Source of the DNA: Escherichia coli
GTDB taxonomy: Bacteria > Pseudomonadota > Gammaproteobacteria > Enterobacterales > Enterobacteriaceae
Reading direction: 5' to 3' (one strand)
Length of the DNA: 64,000 bases
NCBI RefSeq assembly: GCF_013122565.1
Contig: NZ_CP053258.1
Shown here: one piece after another, positions 1 through 14,550 of the stretch
Numbering within the stretch: position 1 is the stretch's first letter
Layout: the number at the start of each line of letters is the position of its first letter
Made by a program: the position numbers and the translations under genes
Notes under the pieces: model-generated
The model's input: only the letters and a program-made list of their open reading frames with translations
What the model was told of the DNA's origin: nothing
Databases searched by the model: none

Positions 1-965
<965 letters not shown>

Positions 966-1239
966 TTATAATTGAATTAATCCACGGATGCGATAGTTGA
1001 GATCTTACATATTGTTGGTTAAAGAGATGTAGATCAAATTGATCGTAATTAAGCTTTTTTGATTATGTCCGAATTCGGACAAATGCTTTATAAAAAAGGG
1101 TTTTAGCTTCATATCCTTCAAGTAATGAGGGAGAAAACAAGGCTGACAACCTTATTTTCCCGCCCTCATTTCGAGGCAGCATTTTGTGCTCTGTTTAAAA
1201 TTTGTGATCACTGTGTGATTTTCACAAAAGCCACACTAT

Positions 1240-2133
<894 letters not shown>

Positions 2134-2171
2134 TTACCTCATCAATCGCTTGTTGTTATATGTTGTGTTGT

Positions 2172-2211
2172 GCACATCTATCCATTTAGACGTCCAGATG
2201 TAAAGATGAAG
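2172..2211 (-). promoter_or_regulatory. tandem met boxes (MetJ operator) upstream of metF
   Basis: Consecutive 8-mers AGACGTCC-AGATGTAA-AGATGAAG resembling met-box consensus AGACGTCT, 40-80 nt upstream of metF start. Confidence 0.6.
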
Positions 2212-2540
2212 GAAAAGCCGAAGGGCGTCAACCGAAAAATGACCACTGATGGTGAGGAAATATCAGGGAAGTTGAAATTTTTTCATCTGAAGAAAAAAAC
2301 AGGGATACCAATGTTCAGTATGAGGTGAATATTGGGAAAATGCTGACGTTATTAATTTTATATTTATTTAAATGATGATTCATTCTGATTTATTTACTTA
2401 AAAAATGAATTATATTTTCAAATAAAACAAAAAGATACTTTAAGCCTCTCCGGCCTCCTCGCTTTTAATTTTGAACCACTTCAAACAAATAATAAATTCC
2501 TAAGAATTAAGTTGCAGACAAATTATACATCCCTCACGAT

Positions 2541-2571
2541 AAGTAGAACGTTCTAGTAGAACGTTCTACTT
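2541..2571 (+). promoter_or_regulatory. tandem LacI-family-type palindromic operator upstream of PTS gene
   Basis: AAGTAGAACGTTCTAGTAGAACGTTCTACTT: two copies of palindrome TAGAACGTTCTA with central CG, ~50 nt upstream of the PTS EIICB start. Confidence 0.5.
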
Positions 2572-2623
2572 ATATAAATAATCGTTCTTGCGCAGTCATC
2601 TGCGCTATTCGGGGGAAATCAGC

Positions 2624-4123
2624 ATGGGTCTGATATCGAGTGTCGTAAAATCACTTTCTAAACTGTCGATGATTGGTCGCGCGCTGATGCTGCCAATTTC
2701 GCTTCTGCCTGCCGCCGGGTTGTTGCTGGCGTTCGGCGATAAATTCCACATGCCGTTGATGATGAATGCCGGCGGTATCATTTTTGATAACTTGCCGATG
2801 CTTTTTGCTATCGGTTCTGCCGTGGGACTGGCTTCAGAATCGGGTATTGCGGCGCTATCCGCAGCTGTATCCGTCTTTGTCACTAATATCACCATCGGTA
2901 CTGTCCTTGGCATCACACCAGAGATGGCCGGGCAAGGCGGTAAATATGCGATGGTGGTGGGGATCCCAACGCTGCAAATGGGCGTCTTCGGCGGCCTGAT
3001 ATGCGGGGTTCTGGCGGCGTGGTGTTACAACCGTTTTCATACCATGCAATTACCAGAATTCCTTGGCTTTTTCTCCGGCAAACGCTTCGTGGCTATCGCG
3101 ACGGCTTTTCTTTCCTTCATCCTTGGCTTGTTACTGCCCTATGTCTGGCAACATATTCAGTCGGGAATCGATGCCCTATCAGTTATCGTCAATGGTGATA
3201 ACCAGGCGGCATCGACCTTTATTTTTGGTGTGACAGAACGTGCGCTCATTCCGCTTGGCCTGCACCACATCTGGTATCCATCGTTCTGGTACTCTTTTGG
3301 TGATTACACCACCCAGGCAGGCCAAATGATCCACGGTGACCAAACAATTTGGTTCAAAATGCTGGAAGAAGGTGTGAAATCGTTCAGTAGCGACAGCTAC
3401 CATAACGCGGGTAAGTTTTTACAGGGCGAGTTCCCGCTCATGCTGTTCGCGCTGCCTGCGGCGTGTCTGGCGATGTACCATGAAGCACACACCAAAAATA
3501 AGAAAATTGCCGCCGGTATTCTGTTCTCTGCCGCATTAACCTGTTTCCTGACAGGTATTACAGAACCCGTTGAATTTACCTTTATTTTCGTGGCACCGGT
3601 ACTGTACGTATTCAACGCGATAATGGCTGGCCTCTCCTATATGGCGATGTATCTGCTCCATGCCCATATTGCAAAATCCTTCTCGGCAGGGCTTATCGAT
3701 TATATTTCGTTTGGCATCCTGCCATCATTTAACGGCTACGAAACCAACTTCCTGAGTGCCATTATTGTTGGCGTACCGATGGCGATTATCTATTACTTCA
3801 CTTTCCGCTTTGTTATTCGCCGTTTTGATGTGAAAACACCGGGTCGAGCCGAAAGCACCGTATCCGCTAACGATAAAACCGATGATGAACTGGCTACGGA
3901 AATTATCAGTCTGCTGGGCGGCCAACAAAATATCTCTTCCGTCGCATCCTGCATAACACGCCTGCGTCTGGAAGTGGCAGATAAGGATGTAGTTGATAAA
4001 GATGGACTGAACAATGTCGGTGCTCGTGGTGTGGTTTTTGTCGGCGATAACGGCATTCAGGTGATTTTTGGCGCACGTGCACAATTTATCGCGCAAACCA
4101 TGTCGACGATGATTGGCAAATAG
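2624..4123 (+). CDS. PTS glucose/maltose-family EIICB component
   Basis: Polytopic membrane N-terminal domain plus C-terminal EIIB with CITRLR phospho-cysteine motif; start placed at ATG 2624 after GGGGGA RBS (track ORF begins at TTG 2588). Confidence 0.8.
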   Translation: MGLISSVVKSLSKLSMIGRALMLPISLLPAAGLLLAFGDKFHMPLMMNAGGIIFDNLPMLFAIGSAVGLASESGIAALSAAVSVFVTNITIGTVLGITPEMAGQGGKYAMVVGIPTLQMGVFGGLICGVLAAWCYNRFHTMQLPEFLGFFSGKRFVAIATAFLSFILGLLLPYVWQHIQSGIDALSVIVNGDNQAASTFIFGVTERALIPLGLHHIWYPSFWYSFGDYTTQAGQMIHGDQTIWFKMLEEGVKSFSSDSYHNAGKFLQGEFPLMLFALPAACLAMYHEAHTKNKKIAAGILFSAALTCFLTGITEPVEFTFIFVAPVLYVFNAIMAGLSYMAMYLLHAHIAKSFSAGLIDYISFGILPSFNGYETNFLSAIIVGVPMAIIYYFTFRFVIRRFDVKTPGRAESTVSANDKTDDELATEIISLLGGQQNISSVASCITRLRLEVADKDVVDKDGLNNVGARGVVFVGDNGIQVIFGARAQFIAQTMSTMIGK

Positions 4124-4190
4124 TCATAAGATTACGCTTTGTTGGAGGTTCTGGTCCCTGACTGGAACCTTCGTACTTATTGTTCAGGGA

Positions 4191-5213
4191 GTGAAGTTGA
4201 AGAAAGTCAGCATAATTGATGTTGCCAAAAGCGCAGGAGTCTCGGTCTCTACTGTGTCGCTGGTCCTGCGCCAGAAAGGCAAAATTTCCGAGGCAACCAT
4301 CGAGAAAGTTCATGCTGCCATTACTGAGCTTGGCTACGTGCATAATGTTGCCGCCGCCAATTTACGCTCCAACACTTCAAATCTTATCGGTCTGATTTTA
4401 CGTGATTTTAGCGATAGCTTTTCCATCAAAGTGATGGCAAGTATTGTTCAGGAACTGGAAGCACAAGGATATATGGTTTTCCTCGGGCAACCACAGAACG
4501 AGCATGAACATCTTGAACGCTGTTTGCTTTCCTTCAAGCAACAAGGTGTTGCCGGAGTGATTTATCTGGCTTCCGATGCGCAGCGTGAAACCTTACCCGC
4601 GCTGATTCGCCAGTGCCCTCTTCCTCTTGTCGTCGCCTCACAATCCCCCATCAAAGATGAATGCAATCTGGTATTGCGCGACAACCAGCAGGCGGCAAGC
4701 CTTGCCACGCGTTATTTAATTGAGCGTGGACATCGTTACATTGCCTACCTCGGCGGCAGAGAAAGCGATCTTATCCGCCAACAGCGACTGGTGGGTTTTC
4801 GCCAGACCCTGGCAAAATTCGGTATTGCCAGTCGTGACGAGTTCACGCCAGCCTGTGACGATGATACATACGCCGCCAGCATGGCCACGCGCCAGTTGCT
4901 GGAGAATAACAATGCCATCACCGCCCTACTCTGCCATTCGCCCGAGGCCATGATTGGCGGTATCAACGGCATACATCAGGTGGGGCGCACCGTCGGGAGA
5001 GACATCTTTCTGACCCAGCAGGTGGCGCTAATTGGTTTTGAAGATATGCTGCACATCAATCTGACCTCGCCCGTTTTCACCTATGTCTCTTCCGCCAGTG
5101 AAGAAACCGGACGCCAGGCTGCTAATCTAATAATCCGCAAGTTAAAAGACCCGGAGCTGCAAATTCAAAGAATTGCGCTTTCCGGGCAACTGGTAGTGCG
5201 GGAATCGGCGTAA
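4191..5213 (+). CDS. LacI-family transcriptional regulator
   Basis: N-terminal HTH KKVSIIDVAKSAGVSVSTVSLVL followed by periplasmic-binding-protein-like sugar-binding fold; start at GTG 4191 or TTG 4197 is uncertain. Confidence 0.8.
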   Translation: MKLKKVSIIDVAKSAGVSVSTVSLVLRQKGKISEATIEKVHAAITELGYVHNVAAANLRSNTSNLIGLILRDFSDSFSIKVMASIVQELEAQGYMVFLGQPQNEHEHLERCLLSFKQQGVAGVIYLASDAQRETLPALIRQCPLPLVVASQSPIKDECNLVLRDNQQAASLATRYLIERGHRYIAYLGGRESDLIRQQRLVGFRQTLAKFGIASRDEFTPACDDDTYAASMATRQLLENNNAITALLCHSPEAMIGGINGIHQVGRTVGRDIFLTQQVALIGFEDMLHINLTSPVFTYVSSASEETGRQAANLIIRKLKDPELQIQRIALSGQLVVRESA

Positions 5214-5336
5214 TTATTTCTGCCAGTCTCCGTCTTTAGCCGGCGGTCATCGCCACAACTGCACTGATGGATATGGTATTCTTTCGAGTATCTTTGCGGG
5301 CACTAACGCCAGGAGTATCGCCATGAGAATGGCGCG

Positions 5337-6818
5337 ATGAACACAGGGAATTTCGAGTCGATACAAATCATACTCGACGCGCAAGAGTGGCGTAGCCTGC
5401 CGCTGCATCTGCGTCTGTATCACGCTTTTCGCCAATTGGTGATTTCCGGCGCGTTGTCTGATGGCGCAAAGCTGCCGTCCGCTCGCGCACTGGCCCAGCA
5501 ACTTGGTCTTTCCAGAGATACCGTCGAAAATGCCTATTCCCAGCTTCAGCGCGACGGTTTTATGACCCGCAGGCAGGGAGCCGGGAGTTTCGCCAGCCGC
5601 CAGGGGATCCCGCAAATTCAGGGGCAGCACGCTCAGCCCCCCTCGCCCGGACAAGCACCGGCATTAACCGCCCGCTGGCAGCCGATTGCCGATCGCGCCG
5701 TCTCTTTCGATGCCCGCCAGATGCAGACCTTTACGCTTGGCCTGCCGGAAACGCGAAACTTCCCGCTAAACATTTGGCAGAACTTTTCCCGCCAGATCCA
5801 ACGTGAGCAGGCGCATACGCTGATGTTAAATAGCGATCCGCAGGGCGAGCCGGAGCTGCGCCAGCAAATTGCGCATTACCTTAATTTTGAACGCGGCGCG
5901 AAGGTAGATGCAGAGCAGATTGTGATTGTCAGCGGCGCACGGCAGGCGTTCTGGCTGTGCGGGCAACTGCTGGCAGAGGCCGGGCAATCAGTGGCGATGG
6001 AAAATCCAGGCTATCCCGGCGCGCGTCAGGCGTTTTCTGCCGCACAGCTTAATCTTCTTCCCGTTGAAGTGGATGACGCCGGGATCCGGGTGGATAAACT
6101 GCCGCCCGCACCGCTGGTTTACGTCACGCCGTCGCACCAGTTTCCTTCTGGTCATTTGCTCACGCTGGCGCGCCGTCACGCCCTGATTGCCTGGGCACAG
6201 GCGCACAATGCGTGGATTATTGAAGACGACTACGACAGCGAATTTCACTACACCAGCGCGCCCGTCGCCTGTCTGCAAGGGTTAGACTGCGAGCAACGCA
6301 CCCTGTATGTCGGCACTTTCAGCAAAACGCTCTATCCTGGTTTGCGCATTGGTTATCTGGTGGTGCCTGCCTCGCTGGCTGCGCACTTTGCCGCCGCACG
6401 TAATTTGCTTGATGGCGCAACGCCTGCGTTATCCCAACTGACGCTGGCGCGATTTATCGAGTCCGGTCATTTTGCCGCCCATATTCGCACCATGCGCAAT
6501 ATGTACGCGGTGCGACAGGCGAGCCTTGCAGAGGCTATTCATCAGCACTTAAGTGAATGGGTCACGCCAGTGGTGACATCCGGTGGATTACAAATGCCCT
6601 GCTGGCTGCATGAAGATGTTGATGAGCAACAGACGCTGAACGCGGCGCGCCGCGCCGGGTTAAATATCGCCGGGATGCGCCAGTTCTGGCTGACGCACCC
6701 CGCGCCCGCGGGCTGGCTGCTGGGATTCGCCGCCTTTACCCCCTACGAAATTGAGCAGGGAGTCAAGCGTCTGCGGGCTGCATTATGCGCTGAAAACGTG
6801 CGCCCAGCCGGGTCATAA
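5337..6818 (+). CDS. MocR/GntR-family regulator with PLP-dependent aminotransferase-like domain
   Basis: 493 aa; N-terminal GntR-type HTH (LPSARALAQQLGLSRDTVENAYSQL) plus large C-terminal aminotransferase-fold domain. Confidence 0.75.
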   Translation: MNTGNFESIQIILDAQEWRSLPLHLRLYHAFRQLVISGALSDGAKLPSARALAQQLGLSRDTVENAYSQLQRDGFMTRRQGAGSFASRQGIPQIQGQHAQPPSPGQAPALTARWQPIADRAVSFDARQMQTFTLGLPETRNFPLNIWQNFSRQIQREQAHTLMLNSDPQGEPELRQQIAHYLNFERGAKVDAEQIVIVSGARQAFWLCGQLLAEAGQSVAMENPGYPGARQAFSAAQLNLLPVEVDDAGIRVDKLPPAPLVYVTPSHQFPSGHLLTLARRHALIAWAQAHNAWIIEDDYDSEFHYTSAPVACLQGLDCEQRTLYVGTFSKTLYPGLRIGYLVVPASLAAHFAAARNLLDGATPALSQLTLARFIESGHFAAHIRTMRNMYAVRQASLAEAIHQHLSEWVTPVVTSGGLQMPCWLHEDVDEQQTLNAARRAGLNIAGMRQFWLTHPAPAGWLLGFAAFTPYEIEQGVKRLRAALCAENVRPAGS

Positions 6819-7869
6819 TCTCATACGGGATGGTGTCGCAGGCAGCCGCAACCTCTTCCAGCGTCTGGCCTGTGCCAATAAACTCCACCTTATCGCCCGC
6901 CGTCGGCGTGACGGCGCTGGCATCGACCATAAAGCTGTCCATACACACCCGCCCCAACACCGGTAACCGCACCCCGCGCCAGCATACGCCCGCCGGAGGA
7001 CGCATATTTCGCGGAACGCCATCCGCGTAACCCGCGGATATCGTGGCGATACGCAGCGGACGCGTGGCGGTAACCGTGCTGCCGTAGCCAACTGGCGTTC
7101 CGGCCGGAACATCCTGCACGCGCAGTATGGTCAGCGTCAGCGTAAAGACCGGTTTTAACGGCCTGGAAAACCACGGCTGGGTGACGCCAAACAGCGCAAT
7201 CCCCGGACGGCAGAGATCTTCCCGCCAGCCCGAGTGCAAAAACATCCCGCAGGAGTTCGCCAGCGAAAATCGGCTGCTGGGGAAAACCGTTTTTGCCTGC
7301 TGAAGTCGCGCGTGTTGCGCCATATTTAACGCATGATCCGGCCTGTCGGCGTTCGCCAGATGGCTGATGATATAATCCGGCGCAGGCCAGTTACGCTCAC
7401 GAAAAATCGCCGCCAGACGCATCAGTTGTTGCGACATCACGCCCAGCCGCGACATCCCGGAATCGAGCTGAATCATCACCGCACGCCGCTGCTGGCGCGT
7501 TTCCAGTAACGTAAGCCACGCCATCACCTGGTCTACGGAATTGAGCAATGGCGTGATCTGCTGCGCGTAACAAAATGCCATCGCCTCCGGCATAACCCCA
7601 TTAAGCACCACCACCCGCGCATCAGCGGGCAAGCATTTACGCAGCGCCACACCTTCAGAAAGCTGCGCGACAAAAAAGATCCGGCAGTTCGCCGCATACA
7701 GGGCGGGAGCAATCGCCTCCGCCCCCAGACCATAGGCATTCGCCTTCAACACCGCGCCACATTGCGCACGGGCAGCATGGCGGGCCAGGGTGCGATAATT
7801 TTCGACAATGGCGGCGAGATTGACGCACATAACGCCGCACGCCGCCTGAATTTCAGCAAGAGTTATCAT
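6763..7869 (-). CDS. alanine racemase-family (fold-type III PLP) enzyme
   Basis: 368 aa; [11 protein letters not shown]-lysine motif typical of Alr; ATG overlaps stop of upstream GlyA-like ORF (ATGA). Confidence 0.75.
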
Positions 7870-8981
7870 TGATAAGGCAACGGATAGCGGTTGGTTAGTT
7901 GTATTACTTTTTGCTCAATATCGGCGCAAATGTCTGCAATATCTGACGCGTTAATGGCCAGAATGATTTCACTTATCCAGTCAGCAATAAGCGCAAAGTC
8001 ATCCGCCTGCATCCCACGCGTGGTGCAGGCCGCGCTGCCAATACGAACGCCGGAGGTAATCGACGGCGGCTGCGGATCGCCCGGCAGGGTGTTTTTATTA
8101 ACCGTGATCCCCGCCAGTTCGAGAAAATACTCTACCTGTGCGCCGGTTAACCCCTGCGGGCGCAGGTCGATAATCCCCAGATGGCAATCGGTGCCGCCCG
8201 TTAACAGCGTCAGACCGCGCTGCGCCAGTTGCTGGCACATCGCCTGCGCATTGTCGATGACCTGCCCGGCATAACGTTTAAATTCCGGTTGTAATGCCTC
8301 GCCAAGCGCCACCGCTTTCGCCGCGATAACGTGCATCAACGGCCCGCCCTGCAAACCGGGAAAGATGGCGCTGTCGATTTTTTTCGCAAGCCGGGCGTCG
8401 TTGGTGAGGATCATGCCGCCGCGCGGCCCGCGCAACGTTTTATGCGTGGTGGTGGTGACCACATCAGCATACGCCAGCGGCGAAGGGAAACAGCCGCCCG
8501 CCACCAGCCCGGCAAAGTGCGCCATATCCACCAGCAAAATGGCGCCCACGGCATCGGCAATGCGGCGAAAACGGGCAAAATCATAGCGGCGTGGATAAGC
8601 CGATCCTCCGGCAATAATCAACCGTGGGCGCTCACGCAGCGCGATCATCTCGACTTCATCCATATCAATCAGGCCACTATGGGCATCGACGCCATAGTGA
8701 AAAGCGTTAAACCATTTGCCAGATTGATTGACCGGCGAACCGTGCGTGAGATGCCCGCCGCATTGCAGGCTCATGCCAAGAATTTTGTCGCCGGGTTTCA
8801 GCAACGCCAGATAGACCGCCTGATTCGCCTGGCTGCCGGAGTGAGGCTGCACATTGACGTAACGTGCGCCAAAGAGTTGCTGGGCGCGGGTTATCGCCAG
8901 CATCTCAACCTCATCAATAAACTTACAGCCGCCGTAGTAGCGATGCTGGTAATAACCTTCGGCGTATTTATTGGTTAACAC
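7866..8981 (-). CDS. serine hydroxymethyltransferase (GlyA) paralog; N-terminus interrupted by in-frame TAG (possible pseudogene, intact frame would start at ATG 9104)
   Basis: ORF aligns to SHMT from LTNKYAEGY onward ([21 protein letters not shown] motifs). Upstream in-frame codons read [43 protein letters not shown], still SHMT-like. Confidence 0.65.
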
Positions 8982-9337
8982 CGACCCCTGCGCCGCGAGA
9001 ACAGCGGGGCTTACGAAATTCTCCGAGGCAATCAGTTCCAGCGACTACTGCTGGCGCTGTTGCTCCTGGTTAATCAATGCAAAAAGTGGATCGTTATTTA
9101 TCATGCGCTTCCCCCGAAAATTCATCATGCGATGATTTTCGCAGGGAAAACGTCGCCCGCACCCTGCCACTTTTTAGAATGAGCGCAGACCACCTATGTC
9201 GTTTTACTTAAAAGAAGAGGGAAGAAGGCTCCAGGCATCTCCATATGCGATTCTGGTTGGTAATACATCATATTCCAGCTGCTCTTATCTGCCTACGTTA
9301 TTGCATAGGCAGAATAAGGCAGCCTCAATACGTACTT

Positions 9338-10891
9338 TTACTTGATATATTTCACGCGCATACCGTTGATCTGTTCATCCGTGATGGTGTTACCCGCTTT
9401 GAAGTAATCAACCACGGCGTGATAAACGTAATAACCGCCCGTTGTGTTACGCGCTTTCCCTTCGGTAAAGGCGGTAAAACCATCTCCACCATCAGCAAGG
9501 AAACTCTGGGTGGCAATAGAATAAACTGTCGCATCTTCAATGGGTTTGCCATTCAGAGTCAGTGTGATTACCCGCTGACCAACCGGCTTGCTGCTGTCGT
9601 ACTTCATTTCCAGGCCTTTCGATACCTGTAAAACGCCATTACTTAAACTTGCGCCGTGTTCCATCAAACTGCGTAATTGTTTCCCTGTGAGATCCATCGT
9701 CACCAGTTCGTTGGGGAACGGGAAGGTACTGATGACGCCGCCCATCGTAATCGCCCCTGCGGGGATCTCATTGCGAATACCGCCAGAGTTGGTTAAGGCT
9801 ATTTGGGTGTTTTTACCCGCCGCTACCAGTAAAGCGTCAGCCGCCAGGTTCCCGAGGGAAGCCGATTCACCATAGGCACGTTTTAATTCAACCGGCGATT
9901 GCGCCACCGTTTGTTGCACCACTTCATCAAGCTTTTTATTCCAGCCGTCGATCACCTGTTTTGTTTGCGGATCGGGCTTCCACTCGTCGGCGTAAATGGT
10001 TTTCAGCTCGAAGTTTTTCACCGTAAAATCATGCGGCTTCTCTTTGTAGTCGAGGACCAGTTTGCCCACATCAATCCCGCCGCTGTCAGTGGAGAGGATG
10101 AGCGTATTGCCGACTTTAATCGGTTCCGGCGTACCCACATGTGCATGTCCGGTGATCAAAATATCCAGCCCTTTCACCTGACTTGCCGTCTGAATATCTT
10201 TATCCAGTGCGCGACGCACATCGGTCCCTCCCATACTGGACTGGCGGGCCGGAACACCTTCATGGATCAGGGCGACGGTCAAATCAACCTTGCCTTTAAG
10301 TTCATCGATATAACGTTGTAGCCATTTAATTTCATCGCGCGCTTCAATACCCACGCGCGTGGCAGCAGATACCGTATCGTTGAAAGCAAATACTCCGTGC
10401 AAACCTATAACGCCTATTTTCACGCCGTCTTTTTCGATGATGGTATATGGCTTATCCCAGAATGATTTACTGCTGTTCTGATAAAAAACATTGCCCTGCA
10501 CAATAGGGAATTTTGCCTGACTCAACTGTAATAATGTGTTGTCCCAGCCGTGGTCAAATTCATGGTTGCCTATCGTGACGGCATCAAACGGCATAGTATT
10601 CATAATATCGATAATAGCCTTACCTTTGGTCAGGCTGCTGATATATGGCCCGGTAAAATAATCACCCGCATCAAAAAACCATGTCGCTTTATTTTTTGCT
10701 TTTTCTTGCTTAACCAGCGTAGTGATATTTGCCCAGCCGCCAATATCCCGTTTACCGTCAGCGATCCACGGCACTTTATAAGGCTCGACATGCGCATGGA
10801 GGTCGTTGGTATAAATGATGGTGACATCTTTGGCGCAAGCCCAGAACGGCAATGTTAATGCGATACCCGCAGCAAGTATTTTAATTTTCAT
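9338..10891 (-). CDS. secreted bifunctional metallophosphatase/5'-nucleotidase (UshA-like)
   Basis: 517 aa; signal peptide [20 protein letters not shown]; calcineurin-like metallophosphatase motifs (GNHEFD, GHAH) and C-terminal 5'-nucleotidase domain. Confidence 0.8.
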
Positions 10892-11023: not shown

Positions 11024-12154
11024 ATGTCAACTCTGTTTACGATTAATGCCTGCAAGTCGTTTGGTTGCCGTAATTTAGGGCAACCAACATCGACAGATTA
11101 CAGCTGGCCAGACTATCGACTGGGTTATCCGGCACTGCACTGTCGGGCATGTGGAAGTTACCCGCCGTTGTTTGACGAACAGCAATTTCGTGACTGGTTG
11201 TCAGTTCACTTATCTACTTTTGCAACTGAGAAAGGTCATTTCTGCCCGGTATGTTATGGCACAAAGACGATTTGTTATGGCCACAATCCACAGGGGTCGC
11301 AACGCATTCAATGTCGTAACTGCAAAAAAGTCTGGACACCTAAACAATATCAGAAAGAAATAACGCCTCCTGAAATAATCGAAACGGTTGCTCTTCTGGT
11401 GCCATTTCAGGGAGCCAGCAATGGGCAGAAACTGTATGTTTTAATCAGTTTTGATGCTCTTCGCGGTAATATTCTTCATCTTTCTACTAATTACACGCAG
11501 CATCAGGCTGGAGAAAGTCTGCATTATCGATACAGAGGAAATGCAGAACCAGAGTTACACGAGAGTAATATTGTACAACGCGTTGATATGCGCGAAGCAC
11601 AATTTCTACGCCGCAGTCAGTTTGATGAAATTCAGTATGGCAGCGCAGCGCTCAAACGCAATGCTAAAGGTATTATTCTGCGTCCGGTTATCACTGCACA
11701 CGGGCATTTCAGAGTACTGAATATTTTATTCCCTACAGTAAAAACACATGTAATTTCACACGAGTGTTTTTTAAGAGGTGCCATTATTACGGCATGGGCT
11801 GATCTGTTTCGCCAACAGCAAGGTGAAATTTGGTTTATTGAAGAGGAAATAGCTGACTATACCGATAATATGCCCTGGAGTTTTCAGGGAACAACATATC
11901 ACGGCTGGTGGAAAAATCAGTGGCAACTTTGGGGTCAGGGCAAAAATCGTAAAATGGTATGTGCATTAACAGGCGGAAATAACAGCAAAGCTGAAATGCT
12001 CTCTTTCGCAACCAGCAGACATTTTATCGACTGGCTACATAAACAAGCAGTATTTACTCACAGCACCCCGCTTTCCGCAGGGCGCGTTACGCAAATACTG
12101 CTTTCTCTGGCTCAGGATTACAACAACTGCGCCAGCCGGTTGATATCCGACTGA
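11024..12154 (+). CDS. hypothetical protein with InsA/IS1595-type zinc-ribbon motifs (transposase-like, likely domesticated or relic)
   Basis: 376 aa; paired CxxC motifs (HCRACG, CPVCYG...QCRNCKKVW) resembling transposase zinc ribbons; 3' end overlaps metL 3' end by 37 nt, so no room for a terminal inverted repeat. Confidence 0.5.
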   Translation: MSTLFTINACKSFGCRNLGQPTSTDYSWPDYRLGYPALHCRACGSYPPLFDEQQFRDWLSVHLSTFATEKGHFCPVCYGTKTICYGHNPQGSQRIQCRNCKKVWTPKQYQKEITPPEIIETVALLVPFQGASNGQKLYVLISFDALRGNILHLSTNYTQHQAGESLHYRYRGNAEPELHESNIVQRVDMREAQFLRRSQFDEIQYGSAALKRNAKGIILRPVITAHGHFRVLNILFPTVKTHVISHECFLRGAIITAWADLFRQQQGEIWFIEEEIADYTDNMPWSFQGTTYHGWWKNQWQLWGQGKNRKMVCALTGGNNSKAEMLSFATSRHFIDWLHKQAVFTHSTPLSAGRVTQILLSLAQDYNNCASRLISD

Positions 12155-14550
12155 ATCGCCCCGGCGGTGACATCGCGCCCTGCGCCTGGTCCGCGGATCA
12201 CCAGAGGGTTATCGCGATACCAGCGGCTTTCGATGGCAAAGACGTTATCGCACGGCAGCAGTGATGCCAGCGGATGATCTTCACGCACCGCTTCCACGCC
12301 CACACGCGCTTTGCCGTTGGCATCGAAACGCGCCACGTAGCGCAGCACCAGCCCCATTTCGCGGGCCGCTTCCAGCCGTTGCAACATCTGCTCGTTGAGT
12401 TCATCGCCGTTTTCAAAGAAATGGTCGATGCTACCGCCTTCGCAATGGGCAGGCACCAGCGATTCCACGCGCACCTGATCCGGTTCGATGTCGTAACCCG
12501 CTTCACGCGCCAGAATCACCAGCTTGCGCATTACGTCTTTGCCGGAGAGGTCGTCACGCGGATCAGGCTCGGTTAAGCCCTGCTGCCACGCCTGATCCAC
12601 CAGCTCGGTAAACGGCACGCTACCGTCGAATTGCAGGAACAGCCAGGAGAGCGTGCCGGAGAAGATCCCACTGATCGACAAAATAGTATCGCCGCTGTCG
12701 ATCAGATCGCGCACGGTGTGGTTGATCGGCAAGCCCGCGCCGACGGTAGCGTTGTACAGCCAGTGACGCCCGGTTTTTTCGAAGGCGTCGTGGATCTGGC
12801 GATATTTATTGCTGTCGCTGGCTCCTGCCAGTTTGTTGGCGCTAATGACGTGGAAACCGTGGCTGGCGAAATCGAGATACTGGTCAGCAAGCTGCTGGCT
12901 GGCGGTAACGTCCAGCACCACTAAATCATCATACGGATGGGCGCGCATCCACAGGAACAGCGACTCTTCATCCTGCTCAACCGCTTCATCGTTGAAGAAG
13001 GCTAACGCGCGGCTGGCGTCCAGCCCGTCATAACTCAACAGGCTGCGGCGGCTGTCCACCACGCCTGCCAGCACAAATTCAAAGCCGGTACGTGCCGAAA
13101 GCGTGCTCTGCTCACGGGCGAACAGTTCCAGCCAGCGGGAACCGATATTGCCCTTGCCGAACAATACCAGGCCGATGCGTTTTTCCGCGCGGAAGACGGA
13201 CTGATGCAGCCCCTGAATCAGGCTTTCGGTCGGGCCGGTGCGCAGAACTGCCACCAGGCTGATGCCGTCATCGGACTGCCAGGTAAACTCGACCGGCTGG
13301 CCTTTCAGTTGCTGCCAGAAGCGGTGGCAATGCAGCGGGTTACGGGTGACACCCGCCCCGACCATCGCCACCAGCGCCAACCCCTGACGCAGGCGCAGCT
13401 CGCCAGGTAATCCCGCTTCGTCTAGGATTTTCAGCGCACTGTCGGCCACTTCTGAGGTGTAGCAAAATTGCAGCAACTGGCGATCGTTATGCACGCCAAC
13501 CGCCAGTGGGCGCACCTGCGCGCGTTTCAGGATCTGGTCGATCTCTTTATGCGCCAGTTTGAAATCCTGGCTGGCGGGCACCTGAAACTCAATCAAGCAG
13601 ACATCGTCGTGGCTGGTGACAATACGCGCACCAGTACCGGAGGCCAGCACGCGTTCAATGCGCGTGGAACCTTGATCCGGCGTGTAGCTACAGCGCAGTT
13701 GCAGGTCAATTTCGCTGCCTGATACCGGCTGTAAAGTACGGGCGTGGAGAACCGGAGCCGCCAGACGCGCCAGTTCGCTGGCTTCATCCAGACGCAGCAA
13801 CGGCAACAGGCAGGCATCTTTCACTTTACGCGGGTCGGCACTGTATACCCCGGCGACGTCGCTCCAGATGGTTACACGAGAAACACCCGCCAGCGCACCG
13901 ATTTGTGTCGCGGAGTAGTCGGAACCGTTACGCCCCAGCAGCACCGTTTCACCGGCGTTGTTACGGCTGATAAACCCGGTCACCACCAGACGTTTACCCG
14001 GATGTTGTACCAGTAGCTGTTGCAGCAACGGGTAAGAAAGCCCTTCATCAACCTGCGGCTGCGCAGCGCGTTCAGCGCGTAAAAACTCGCGGGCATCAAG
14101 CCAGGCCGCTGGCAGCCCTTGTTGATTAAGTACCGCAGACATCAGGCGCGCCGACCACACTTCACCATGGCCCACCACTTCCGCATACACCGCATCGTTA
14201 ATACCGCTGTCGAGCAGCGCCGCCAGGCGCTCAAGATCGCTGACAAAAGCGCTAATGAGGCTATCGGCTTCTTCAGCGGGTAGCAGACCGCTAATCAGAT
14301 CGCACTGATAGCGACGCAGCGTTTGTTGAACCTGATGCGCAGAGAGACGATCGGTCTGGCTTAGTTTCAACCAGTTAATCAACTGGTTAGTGGTGCTACC
14401 AGCGGCGGAAACCACCATCATATCGTCAGGCTGAGAGTACTCCGCCATAATGCCCGCGACACGCAAATAACACTTCACATCAGCCAGACTACTGCCACCA
14501 AATTTATGCAGTTGACGACCTTTCGCCCCTGCCTGCGCAATCACACTCAT
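12118..14550 (-). CDS. metL: bifunctional aspartokinase II / homoserine dehydrogenase II
   Basis: 810-aa ORF MSVIAQAGAKGRQLHKFGGSSLADVKCYLRVAG... matches MetL full length. Confidence 0.95.
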   Translation of the reverse strand: MSVIAQAGAKGRQLHKFGGSSLADVKCYLRVAGIMAEYSQPDDMMVVSAAGSTTNQLINWLKLSQTDRLSAHQVQQTLRRYQCDLISGLLPAEEADSLISAFVSDLERLAALLDSGINDAVYAEVVGHGEVWSARLMSAVLNQQGLPAAWLDAREFLRAERAAQPQVDEGLSYPLLQQLLVQHPGKRLVVTGFISRNNAGETVLLGRNGSDYSATQIGALAGVSRVTIWSDVAGVYSADPRKVKDACLLPLLRLDEASELARLAAPVLHARTLQPVSGSEIDLQLRCSYTPDQGSTRIERVLASGTGARIVTSHDDVCLIEFQVPASQDFKLAHKEIDQILKRAQVRPLAVGVHNDRQLLQFCYTSEVADSALKILDEAGLPGELRLRQGLALVAMVGAGVTRNPLHCHRFWQQLKGQPVEFTWQSDDGISLVAVLRTGPTESLIQGLHQSVFRAEKRIGLVLFGKGNIGSRWLELFAREQSTLSARTGFEFVLAGVVDSRRSLLSYDGLDASRALAFFNDEAVEQDEESLFLWMRAHPYDDLVVLDVTASQQLADQYLDFASHGFHVISANKLAGASDSNKYRQIHDAFEKTGRHWLYNATVGAGLPINHTVRDLIDSGDTILSISGIFSGTLSWLFLQFDGSVPFTELVDQAWQQGLTEPDPRDDLSGKDVMRKLVILAREAGYDIEPDQVRVESLVPAHCEGGSIDHFFENGDELNEQMLQRLEAAREMGLVLRYVARFDANGKARVGVEAVREDHPLASLLPCDNVFAIESRWYRDNPLVIRGPGAGRDVTAGAIQSDINRLAQLL

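Follow-up and report, generated by a model that had tools for sequence, protein, structure and literature searches.

The 64,000-nucleotide stretch of Escherichia coli DNA analyzed here (contig NZ_CP053258.1; hereafter the window) carries a block of three genes encoding an SHMT-like enzyme, an alanine racemase, and a MocR-family regulator. We consider it likely that this block is an acquired module in which MocR would control a translationally coupled SHMT-racemase operon, that the overlap between the racemase and regulator genes arose as a by-product of their arrangement, and that the SHMT gene is a pseudogene in this strain. Overall, the locus is real, conserved, and ordinary.

A three-gene module shared with Salmonella

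5215..9337, both strands: three-gene module (SHMT-like gene, alr3, mocR), a strain-variable block that occupies the entire intergenic position between a malI-like gene and a 5'-nucleotidase gene
5337..6818, plus strand: mocR, encoding a 493-aa PLP-dependent transcription factor of the MocR/GabR type; its Salmonella Enteritidis orthologue is SEN3898
6763..7869, minus strand: alr3, encoding the 368-aa alanine racemase Alr3; its Salmonella Enteritidis orthologue is SEN3897
7866..9104, minus strand: SHMT-like gene, a glyA paralogue whose Salmonella orthologue adjoins SEN3897; a pseudogene here

A preliminary description of this DNA had assigned the genes as SHMT-like, Alr-like, and MocR-family, and the domain calls agree for all three. 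The SHMT-like sequence matches PF00464 (478.9 bits) and NF000586 (555.8 bits against a cut-off of 335), contains the PLP-lysine and VNKN motifs, and has PDB matches that are all SHMTs. Where intact, the enzyme is predicted to be a canonical SHMT of the THF type, with its clade distinguished by unusual substitutions beside the active-site loop (YPGK to YYQH).

The racemase contains PF01168 (Ala_racemase_N, 166.5 bits) and PF00842 (Ala_racemase_C, 132.1 bits), reaches 236.6 bits with the alanine racemase model TIGR00492 (cut-off 168), and is identical in sequence to E. coli QJU26048.1. Its KANAYG and VGYG (TPVGYGST) motifs, which we take to be the catalytic lysine and tyrosine motifs of alanine racemase, show no clade-specific substitution in an alignment of 108 homologues. 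All of the top PDB matches are alanine racemases, and the closest solved structure, the Bartonella Alr 3KW3, is also given as the structural match for SEN3897 (PMC6040060). Alr3 is 83% identical to Salmonella 'alanine racemase 3' (SEN3897), which racemises alanine in vitro, is weakly expressed, and does not rescue an alr dadX mutant (PMC6040060, 2018); that study treated SEN3897 alone. By analogy with the activity measured on this orthologue, Alr3 is judged to be a genuine alanine racemase. The same paper gives unusually high kinetic constants for each of the three racemases. What has been called the 'third alanine racemase' of E. coli HS was considered as a relative and set aside, as it is the unrelated metC.

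The regulator combines a GntR helix-turn-helix domain (PF00392, residues 26-85) with an Aminotran_1_2 domain (PF00155, residues 155-403), which is the composition of the MocR subfamily, and its translation contains TFSKT (SK motif) at what is presumably the expected position of the PLP lysine. It is 89% identical to the Salmonella protein, and SEN3898 has been named mocR (PMC3220660). Although the NCBIfam PdxR model scores 435 bits on this protein against a cut-off of 320, an identity as the pyridoxine biosynthesis regulator was rejected, since neither the module nor the DNA flanking it contains pdx genes in any lineage. The RMDEC465 copy is named PdxR by PGAP, a name to which the genomic context gives no backing. 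The mocR gene and its presumed target converge instead of diverging, which is atypical of MocR regulators, and the region upstream of mocR is not conserved.

The flanks of the module (positions 1-5214 and 9338 onward) are 98-99% identical to those of E. coli UTME-7/PT62, in which the module is absent and 72 unrelated bp lie between the flanks instead. A search of 5426 complete E. coli genomes at 95% identity located the module in 3. Its GC content is 58-62%, as compared to 43-53% in the flanks, and the nearest homologues beyond the orthologues are alpha- and beta-proteobacterial proteins with 49-64% identity. The GC richness, the absence from the nearest E. coli strains, the rarity, and the distance of the next homologues together point toward a foreign origin. 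Judged from sequence, the module is a compact, rare, horizontally acquired accessory block in E. coli. It is the counterpart there of SEN3896-SEN3898, which belong to ROD34 of Salmonella Enteritidis, and E. fergusonii is another carrier.

The same gene order, -4 or -1 junction, and 3' overlap recur in E. coli 2013C, RMDEC465, Salmonella, L007, E. fergusonii, and the metagenome loci L092 and L109. The three genes are therefore co-conserved in every lineage found, being kept as a unit in rare E. coli, E. fergusonii, Salmonella, and a third lineage. A scan of genome contigs with the racemase returned generic alanine racemases only (best 48% identical), with an SHMT or MocR gene adjacent in 0 of 80 loci; its exact-peptide patterns probably missed E. 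fergusonii, and the module is absent from the genomes that represent the species S. enterica and E. coli. A metagenome scan with a 19-mer of the conserved leader yielded 22 loci, two of which (L092 and L109) are the module; the other 20 were rejected as chance matches. L008, a candidate for a 69%-identical fourth lineage, was dropped as a chimeric metagenome contig in which the E. coli module is fused to the 5' half of a Firmicute-like glyA.

The SHMT-alr3 junction and the interrupted upstream frame

7866..7869, minus strand: ATGA stop/start overlap of the SHMT-like gene and alr3 (racemase ATG at 7869-7867, SHMT TGA at 7868-7866)
9045..9047, minus strand: in-frame amber TAG as codon 20 of the SHMT-like frame; relatives encode Gln (CAG) or His (CAC) here
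9105..9196, minus strand: conserved block of ~92 bp upstream of the SHMT-alr3 operon, with a putative role as its operator, promoter, and 5' leader

The reverse complement of the sequence confirmed the previously noted ATGA at 7866-7869. As a -4 overlap, this is the commonest same-strand configuration in E. coli (PMC10666635), and the junction is thus unremarkable in itself. The non-random part is its conservation as -4 or -1 across four lineages at dS values reaching ~1.1: E. fergusonii and RMDEC465 have TAATG (-1), and ATGA is shared by the window, E. coli 2013C, Salmonella, and L007. Overlaps this short are a prerequisite of coupling (Huber et al. 2023, PMC10666635), and no Shine-Dalgarno-like purine run is present in the 20 nt upstream of alr3 in any lineage compared. 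A -4 junction combined with a downstream gene that lacks a Shine-Dalgarno sequence has what would be the architecture of termination-reinitiation coupling.

In carriers where the operon is intact, we propose that PLP-binding MocR acts on the ~92-bp block upstream of the SHMT gene, as suggested by adjacency and by the presence of one conserved non-coding block, and that a bicistronic SHMT-alr3 mRNA is produced from which alr3, without a Shine-Dalgarno sequence of its own, would be translated by termination-reinitiation at AUGA (or UAAUG). The block at 9105..9196 is the sole non-coding part of the module conserved in four lineages, and the DNA further upstream is unrelated. Two hairpins are predicted in the leader, the second of which pairs the Shine-Dalgarno-like GGGGGAA (z = -3.8); covariation in these hairpins was not significant across 6 sequences, and no Rfam family was detected in 5000-9600. 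The predicted RNA structure is offered as a lead only. A sigma-54-like TGGCAG-N-GC element in the leader was dropped from consideration, as its -12 GC is not conserved in Salmonella, and a comparison of the SHMT leader with the region upstream of mocR revealed no common motif.

In this strain, the SHMT gene is a pseudogene owing to the in-frame TAG at codon 20. The amber codon is absent from the preliminary description. While the orthologues are intact (411-413 aa), the longest open frame in the window starts at GTG 8981, and ~41 N-terminal residues (profile positions 1-42) are missing. An assembly error is unlikely, since L115, an assembly derived from reads, matches the window at 100% identity across 4200 bp and has the TAG as well; within the protein collection, L115 is the only assembly with the 371-aa truncated product. 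The lesion is probably a recent CAG to TAG nonsense mutation, and the resulting loss of coupling, possibly with Rho polarity, would probably reduce Alr3 expression strongly. With the SHMT gene a pseudogene and no Shine-Dalgarno sequence before alr3, the coupled racemase is probably poorly made in this strain. The earlier claim of SHMT-racemase co-translation thus fits the architecture of the junction, but co-translation is most likely inoperative here given the amber codon.

The chance that the operon nonetheless still functions in this strain, either through read-through or suppression of the amber codon or through a restart at GTG 8981 that yields a working truncated SHMT, with alr3 normally expressed, is in our view slim. 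All three genes carry a signal of purifying selection (dN/dS ~0.07 for SHMT, ~0.2 for alr, and ~0.1 for mocR) that extends to the E. coli copies, and the low value for SHMT would make the lesion recent; in addition, alr3 and mocR are intact, and a Shine-Dalgarno-like AGGGG lies 5 nt before GTG 8981. A restart at this codon could possibly hold ribosomes on the message and so preserve some alr3 translation. The truncated SHMT, however, would lack the ~41 N-terminal residues that include the conserved ELIASEN segment, which contributes a substrate-carboxylate ligand and the dimer arm, and no SHMT protein is present in NCBI next to QJU26047/QJU26048 of this genome. Independent lesions are present in other carriers: E. 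coli 2013C has a nonsense mutation in SHMT, RMDEC465 has one in alr, L109 has an SHMT frameshift, and S. Enteritidis PT13a has a 92-bp deletion in mocR. These repeated events argue for relaxed selection, and decay of the module seems to be under way in several carriers from Escherichia and Salmonella.

Origin of the convergent 3' overlap

6763..6818, shared by both strands: 3'-3' overlap of alr3 and mocR, 56 bp by ORF coordinates

ORF coordinates bear out the overlap of ~56 bp at 6763-6818 that had been described and called unusual. Since 84% of prokaryotic overlaps are unidirectional (PMC10666635), a convergent overlap of 56 bp does belong to the rarer class, but it is conserved, and our verdict on it is that it is ordinary. 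The overlap is identical in length in E. coli 2013C, Salmonella, and E. fergusonii and measures 83 bp in L007, with dS of about 0.4-1.3 between lineages; the Salmonella and E. fergusonii orthologues also match in length (368 and 493 aa). C-terminal alignments of 108 Alr and ~120 MocR homologues place the end of the family-conserved Alr core at M363 (6781-6783) and that of the MocR core at L483 (6783-6785), such that the two cores abut. Past them, non-conserved tails of 5 aa (Alr) and 10 aa (MocR) each run over the partner gene. We propose that the overlap is an old structural by-product: with the cores of Alr3 and MocR abutting without a spacer, each frame would continue until it meets its first stop in the antisense sequence of the other gene, leaving no intergenic terminator. 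Indeed, no intrinsic terminator is predicted between the genes or in or near 6763-6818, making convergent read-through plausible.

The preliminary description had suggested that one of the two ends may be mis-set. The proteins might then end earlier, with a wrongly placed 3' end or a sequencing error behind the overlap, and it is true that most MocR homologues are 9 residues shorter at the end and many Alr homologues 3-5 residues shorter. The 3' ends are fixed by stop codons, which are facts of the sequence rather than choices of annotation, neither the protein lengths nor the 56 bp change in the Salmonella and E. fergusonii orthologues (L007 has 83 bp), and an independent assembly is 100% identical. 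The C-terminal alignment, which had been put forward as a way in which the overlap could vanish, still leaves 29 bp after MocR is trimmed to its family-typical end, because the cores abut. At the level of sequence, comparison of orthologues already refutes an artefact, to which we give next to no credence.

A selected regulatory device, in which antisense or transcriptional interference would act in both directions between the SHMT-alr3 operon and mocR, is a less implausible alternative to a by-product but is still unlikely. Such a device would be consistent with the absence of a predicted intrinsic terminator, with the maintenance of the arrangement across lineages at dS ~1, and with the unusual layout of a regulator convergent with its presumed target. 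Yet the 56 bp are no more conserved than the genes themselves (~20% divergence between the window and L007, as compared to 21-23% gene-wide), the overlap is free to vary in length from 56 to 83 bp, and the tails are not conserved. Rho-dependent termination past each stop could also avert collisions, and a second convergent overlap of 37 bp, which lies 5 kb away between metL and the ORF next to it, has no evident function.

Substrate range and relation to known systems

The pairing of the racemase with an SHMT suggests a common pathway, and it could be argued that the racemase acts mainly on serine and threonine, or has a broad spectrum, and feeds SHMT in the utilisation of D-Ser and D-Thr. Alternatively, the pair might handle the interconversion of 2-methylserine and D-alanine, as 2-methylserine hydroxymethyltransferase (EC 2.1.2.7) yields D-alanine. 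In line with a serine/threonine substrate, VanT serine-racemase models match Alr3, the SHMT clade has its YYQH residues by the active-site loop, and alanine was the only substrate tested for SEN3897, with a very high Km (PMC6040060). The VanT score of 185.9 nevertheless falls far short of the cut-off of 460, whereas the alanine racemase equivalog is passed (236.6 against 168), and the catalytic lysine and tyrosine motifs are free of clade-specific change. Alr3 also retains the tyrosine of the 'PYE' motif, which restricts racemase to alanine, and its closest relatives are alphaproteobacterial alanine racemases (for example, that of Bartonella), which we presume to be sole housekeeping copies. 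The preliminary suggestion of a Ser/Thr racemase found nothing beyond the sub-threshold VanT matches, and with the Salmonella orthologue racemising alanine (PMC6040060), we regard these substrate readings as quite unlikely.

A further speculation, which we hold to be a long shot, is that the module serves as a backup against PLP damage, with a spare SHMT and a spare Alr controlled by MocR as a PLP-binding sensor. Work cited in PMC12172467 and PMC5320631 documents both SHMT (GlyA) and alanine racemase as 2-aminoacrylate targets in Salmonella. Were this the case, MocR might respond to a lack of PLP or to PLP-reactive toxins, such as 2-aminoacrylate or cycloserine-like antimetabolites, by inducing replacement isozymes, while terminator-less convergent transcription into mocR would provide built-in feedback.

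Under the preferred account of an acquired, coupled operon, the racemase (Alr3/SEN3897), which has been linked to virulence phenotypes but studied only in isolation, is encoded by the second gene of a conserved and probably coupled operon behind an SHMT paralogue, with mocR overlapping its 3' end. As this position makes polar and regulatory effects possible, the published SEN3897 knockout and expression data need to be re-read. The locus also shows cleanly that a long convergent overlap can be genuine and not a mis-annotation; the alignments reveal both the origin of the overlap (abutting cores with run-on tails) and the way in which each protein strays from the consensus of its family over the stretch that also encodes its partner. 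No long-standing question is opened, and the value lies mainly in a correction and a tidy example.

The closest known system is SEN3896-SEN3898 of Salmonella Enteritidis (Ray et al. 2018, PMC6040060), with amino acid identities of 83% for Alr, 89% for MocR, and about 87-94% for SHMT. Gene order, -4 junction, 56-bp overlap, and the metL-metF neighbourhood are all alike, although SHMT is intact in Salmonella and interrupted by the amber at codon 20 in the window, and the flanking genes differ, with a malI-like gene and a PTS EIIC gene on the mocR side in the window. The SHMT gene, the operon, and the overlap are unmentioned in the SEN3897 study (PMC6040060). The module enzymes share folds and catalytic motifs, including KANAYG and VGYG, with the housekeeping enzymes (GlyA, Alr/DadX) found in E. 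coli and Salmonella, but are xenologues that are GC-rich, strain-variable, dispensable, and nearest to alpha-/beta-proteobacterial enzymes (49-64%); Alr3 alone fails to sustain D-Ala prototrophy (PMC6040060).

In MocR/GabR regulons (Suvorova & Rodionov 2016, PMC5320631), as in the window, a regulator with a GntR helix-turn-helix and an aminotransferase fold adjoins genes for PLP enzymes, and GlyA-family genes are among the members of MocR and PdxR regulons (PMC5320631). The window regulator differs in being convergent rather than divergent and in lacking pdxST/pdxK despite its PdxR score. With respect to translationally coupled pairs (PMC10666635), the junction types are the same, the downstream gene likewise lacks a Shine-Dalgarno sequence, and across lineages the junction switches only between two coupling-competent forms. 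Whereas coupled pairs are enriched for subunits of heteromeric complexes, there is no sign of an SHMT-Alr complex, and the window departs from such pairs in that its upstream ORF is interrupted.

Gene content and junctions of the alr3 module

The module comprises three genes, with coordinates taken from the ORF listing and the sequence itself:

5337..6818, plus strand, MocR-type ORF (mocR), 493 aa
6763..7869, minus strand, racemase ORF (alr3), 368 aa
end at 7866, minus strand, SHMT-like frame (a glyA paralogue)

Profile searches identified the SHMT-like product as a serine hydroxymethyltransferase (PF00464, 478.9 bits; NF000586, 555.8 against a cut-off of 335), the racemase as an alanine racemase (PF01168 and PF00842; TIGR00492, 236.6 against a cut-off of 168), and the regulator as a MocR/GabR-type protein with a GntR HTH and an aminotransferase fold. 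Sequence analysis found the catalytic motifs and fold of both enzymes to be present, and the racemase and regulator are exact matches to E. coli QJU26048.1 and QJU26047.1, respectively. The regulator also scores above the cut-off of the NCBIfam PdxR model, and the gene in the carrier E. coli RMDEC465 was named pdxR by PGAP; this name is not supported by context, because no pdx genes lie near the module in any lineage.

The preliminary description had noted that the racemase start overlaps the SHMT stop, and 7869-7866 indeed reads ATGA on the minus strand, an overlap of 4 nt. At dS values of 0.4-1.2, the junction always takes one of two configurations that permit termination-reinitiation.

SHMT-alr3 junction in each lineage
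Window: …TATCAATGATAACT
E. coli 2013C-4282 and Salmonella: …CAATGATGA…
L007, a separate lineage carrying the module: …TTCATGATGATGA…
E. fergusonii and E. coli RMDEC465: TAT TAATG (CAA→TAA; −1 overlap, SHMT one residue shorter)

This architecture is ordinary, since −4 is the most frequent same-strand junction in E. coli (Huber et al. 2023, PMC10666635). No GGAG/AGGA-like run was found within 20 nt upstream of the alr start in any lineage compared. The arrangement is consistent with a mechanism in which alr3 translation would depend on ribosomes completing the SHMT ORF, and coupling is known to collapse when the upstream stop is moved by ~20 nt or more (Huber et al. 2023, PMC10666635).

At its other end, alr3 shares 6763-6818 with the plus-strand ORF, a 3'-3' overlap of 56 bp. 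The suggestion that one end had been mis-set does not hold, because stop codons fix both; Salmonella and E. fergusonii have products of the same lengths (368 and 493 aa) and the same 56-bp overlap, while in L007 the racemase has 378 aa and the overlap spans 83 bp. Both overlaps are real, at the coordinates originally given, and are conserved. When 108 homologues were aligned, the conserved Alr C-terminal strand (…YEILTRLGxRYxRxY) was found to end at M363, with a 5-aa tail, QPADA, beyond it. Most of the ~120 aligned MocR homologues stop one residue past …RLARAL, and this conserved end corresponds to L483 in the window protein, with a 10-aa tail beyond. As the M363 codon occupies 6781-6783 and the L483 codon 6783-6785, the two conserved cores abut with no spacer, and each non-conserved tail is the antisense of the partner's conserved end, run to the first stop. 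The MocR TAA stop is the antisense of Alr codons I351-M352 and exists only because Alr has Met there (Leu in 106/108 homologues). M363 stands in place of Tyr (93/108 homologues), opposite a conserved Leu of MocR, and a MocR Lys→Ile substitution found in L007 abolishes the Alr stop, making Alr longer by 10 residues.

Conservation within the overlap does not noticeably exceed that of the remaining gene sequence, the window and L007 diverging by ~20% there and by 21-23% gene-wide. In our interpretation the overlap is a by-product of extreme compaction, structural in nature and conserved; it could have come, for example, from a deletion during module assembly, aided by GC-rich, stop-poor sequence. 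No intrinsic terminator is predicted within or around 6763-6818; convergent read-through is possible there, as are the putative antisense effects raised in the preliminary description.

A second convergent overlap, of 37 bp (12118-12154), lies between the 3' end of metL (12118..14550, minus strand) and a 376-aa 'cytoplasmic protein' ORF (11024..12154, plus strand), and is also present in the gene calls of the E. fergusonii loci L112-L114. Such sizes therefore occur in the neighbourhood without obvious significance.

An amber codon in the SHMT gene and decay among carriers

The longest SHMT ORF begins at GTG 8981, and the Pfam model is matched only from position 43. Read further upstream, the frame opens with an ATG at 9104-9102 and is interrupted by TAG at codon 20 (9047-9045), which is CAG or CAC in E. 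coli, E. fergusonii, and Salmonella relatives. The GlyA-like gene is a pseudogene in the window strain, a feature absent from the preliminary description. A read-derived assembly (L115, SRR11451224) is 100% identical to the window across 4200 bp, TAG included. The genome encoding QJU26047.1 and QJU26048.1 has no SHMT entry among NCBI proteins for this gene, and the 371-aa SHMT fragment was found solely in the read-derived Logan assembly. Because the codon-20 TAG halts ribosomes ~1.2 kb upstream of alr3, coupling should be lost in the window strain. Rho polarity on alr3 is possible in this strain, and translation might resume at GTG 8981, where an AGGGG lies 5 nt before the codon.

Pairwise dN/dS values, E. 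coli allele pairs included, are ~0.07 for SHMT, ~0.2 for alr, and ~0.1 for mocR; the genes were therefore functional until recently. Independent inactivating lesions are common among carriers, and the module looks dispensable and loss-prone in several Escherichia and Salmonella carriers.

Inactivating lesions in module carriers
Window: SHMT Q20amber
E. coli 2013C-4282 (L001 8531-9790): a different SHMT Gln→stop; PGAP pseudogene, 'internal stop'
E. coli RMDEC465 (L002 7428-8534): alr Tyr349→stop
Salmonella genome L109 (11170-12406): SHMT frameshift near codon 207
S. Enteritidis PT13a: 92-bp deletion within mocR (SEN3898; PMC3220660)

Origin of the module and its conserved upstream block

On either side of the module (1-5214 and 9338 onward) the sequence matches ordinary E. 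coli chromosomes at 98-99% identity and belongs to katG-metF … metL-metB, and the closest strains, UTME-7 and PT62, have just 72 unrelated bp between the malI-like and 5'-nucleotidase genes; 5215-9337 is therefore a strain-variable insertion or replacement. In UTME-7 these 72 bp (L111 1481-1553), which look REP-like, stand in place of the 4.1-kb module. Each breakpoint (5214/5215, 9337/9338) coincides exactly with a stop codon, that of the malI-like gene or that of the 5'-nucleotidase gene, with neither scar nor repeat seen. On its left the module is flanked (2588-5213) by genes for a PTS EIIC(B) and a malI-like repressor of the LacI family, whose listed ORFs (2588..4123, 4113..5213) share 11 bp; PGAP sets the malI start of UTME-7 later than in the window ORF listing. 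In E. fergusonii and in the E. coli carriers at 95% identity, a 324-aa hypothetical gene beside metF takes the place of these neighbours.

The block occurs, at 95% identity, in only 3 of 5426 complete E. coli genomes, and is richer in GC (58-62%) than the flanks (43-53%). The same three genes are kept in the same order in Salmonella enterica (including Typhi, Enteritidis, and Dublin), in E. fergusonii, type strain included, and in L007 (identity 75% for Alr, 88% for SHMT, and 85% for MocR). The next Alr homologues, at only 49% identity, are alphaproteobacterial racemases such as that of Bartonella, which we take to be housekeeping copies, and neither SHMT nor MocR lies beside them at those loci. 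Outside the module lineages, identity drops sharply to 64% for SHMT and is ~50% for MocR (Janthinobacterium, Pseudomonas, Achromobacter). A candidate fourth, divergent lineage, L008 (ERZ808041 NODE_4838), was rejected as an assembly artefact, a chimeric metagenome contig in which rpiB-like and Firmicute-like glyA 5' halves continue in frame into the 3' half of an E. coli-type SHMT paralogue, followed by alr3.

Among the non-coding DNA of the module, only a block of ~92 bp abutting the SHMT start on its upstream side (9105-9196, minus strand) is conserved; sequence beyond it is unrelated between lineages, and conservation upstream of mocR spans only ~25 bp. Within this block are a direct repeat, GTGG(T/C), with a spacing of 22 bp and two predicted RNA hairpins, the second of which pairs an SD-like GGGGGAA. 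Folding gave z = −3.8 for the window and z = −1.5 for L007, and 93.5% of cells pair in an alignment of six variants, among which covariation was not significant, being not above shuffles. Rfam gave no match. From its adjacency, the block is a putative operator, promoter, or leader on which MocR would act.

Function and the Salmonella counterpart

The SHMT clade is altered beside the active-site loop (residues 50-55, window 8940-8955), where nearly all close homologues read YAEGYPGKRYY. The Pro of this stretch is replaced in 4/4 clade members and present in 96/98 outgroup sequences, and clade residues Cys115 and Phe327 are Ala in 94/98 and 93/98 homologues, respectively. These substitutions may point to a change in how folate or substrate is handled. 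Little weight is given to a Ser/Thr racemase-aldolase pathway formed by the racemase and SHMT, to interconversion of 2-methylserine and D-Ala by the module, or to a backup pair against PLP-enzyme damage.

The window racemase shares 83% identity with the 'alanine racemase 3' cluster of Salmonella, Enteritidis sequences included. SEN3897 of the S. Enteritidis island ROD34 was described as a 'third alanine racemase', Alr3, that acts in vitro on L- and D-alanine with Km values of 89 and 35 mM, is expressed in LB at levels 2- to 4-fold below alr and dadX, and does not rescue an alr dadX double mutant (Ray et al. 2018, PMC6040060). Among solved structures, both racemases are nearest to 3KW3, the Bartonella henselae Alr, to which SEN3897 is 42% identical (PMC6040060). 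The adjoining SEN3898 was named mocR (PMC3220660), and GlyA-family genes occur, as a general remark, among members of MocR/PdxR regulons (Suvorova & Rodionov 2016, PMC5320631). The 2018 Alr3 paper makes no mention of an SHMT gene, operon, or overlap (PMC6040060). The gene set is an accessory island already annotated and partly characterised as Salmonella ROD34/Alr3; new within the searchable literature are the operon context of Alr3, the anatomy of the convergent overlap, the conserved leader, and the pattern of independent decay.
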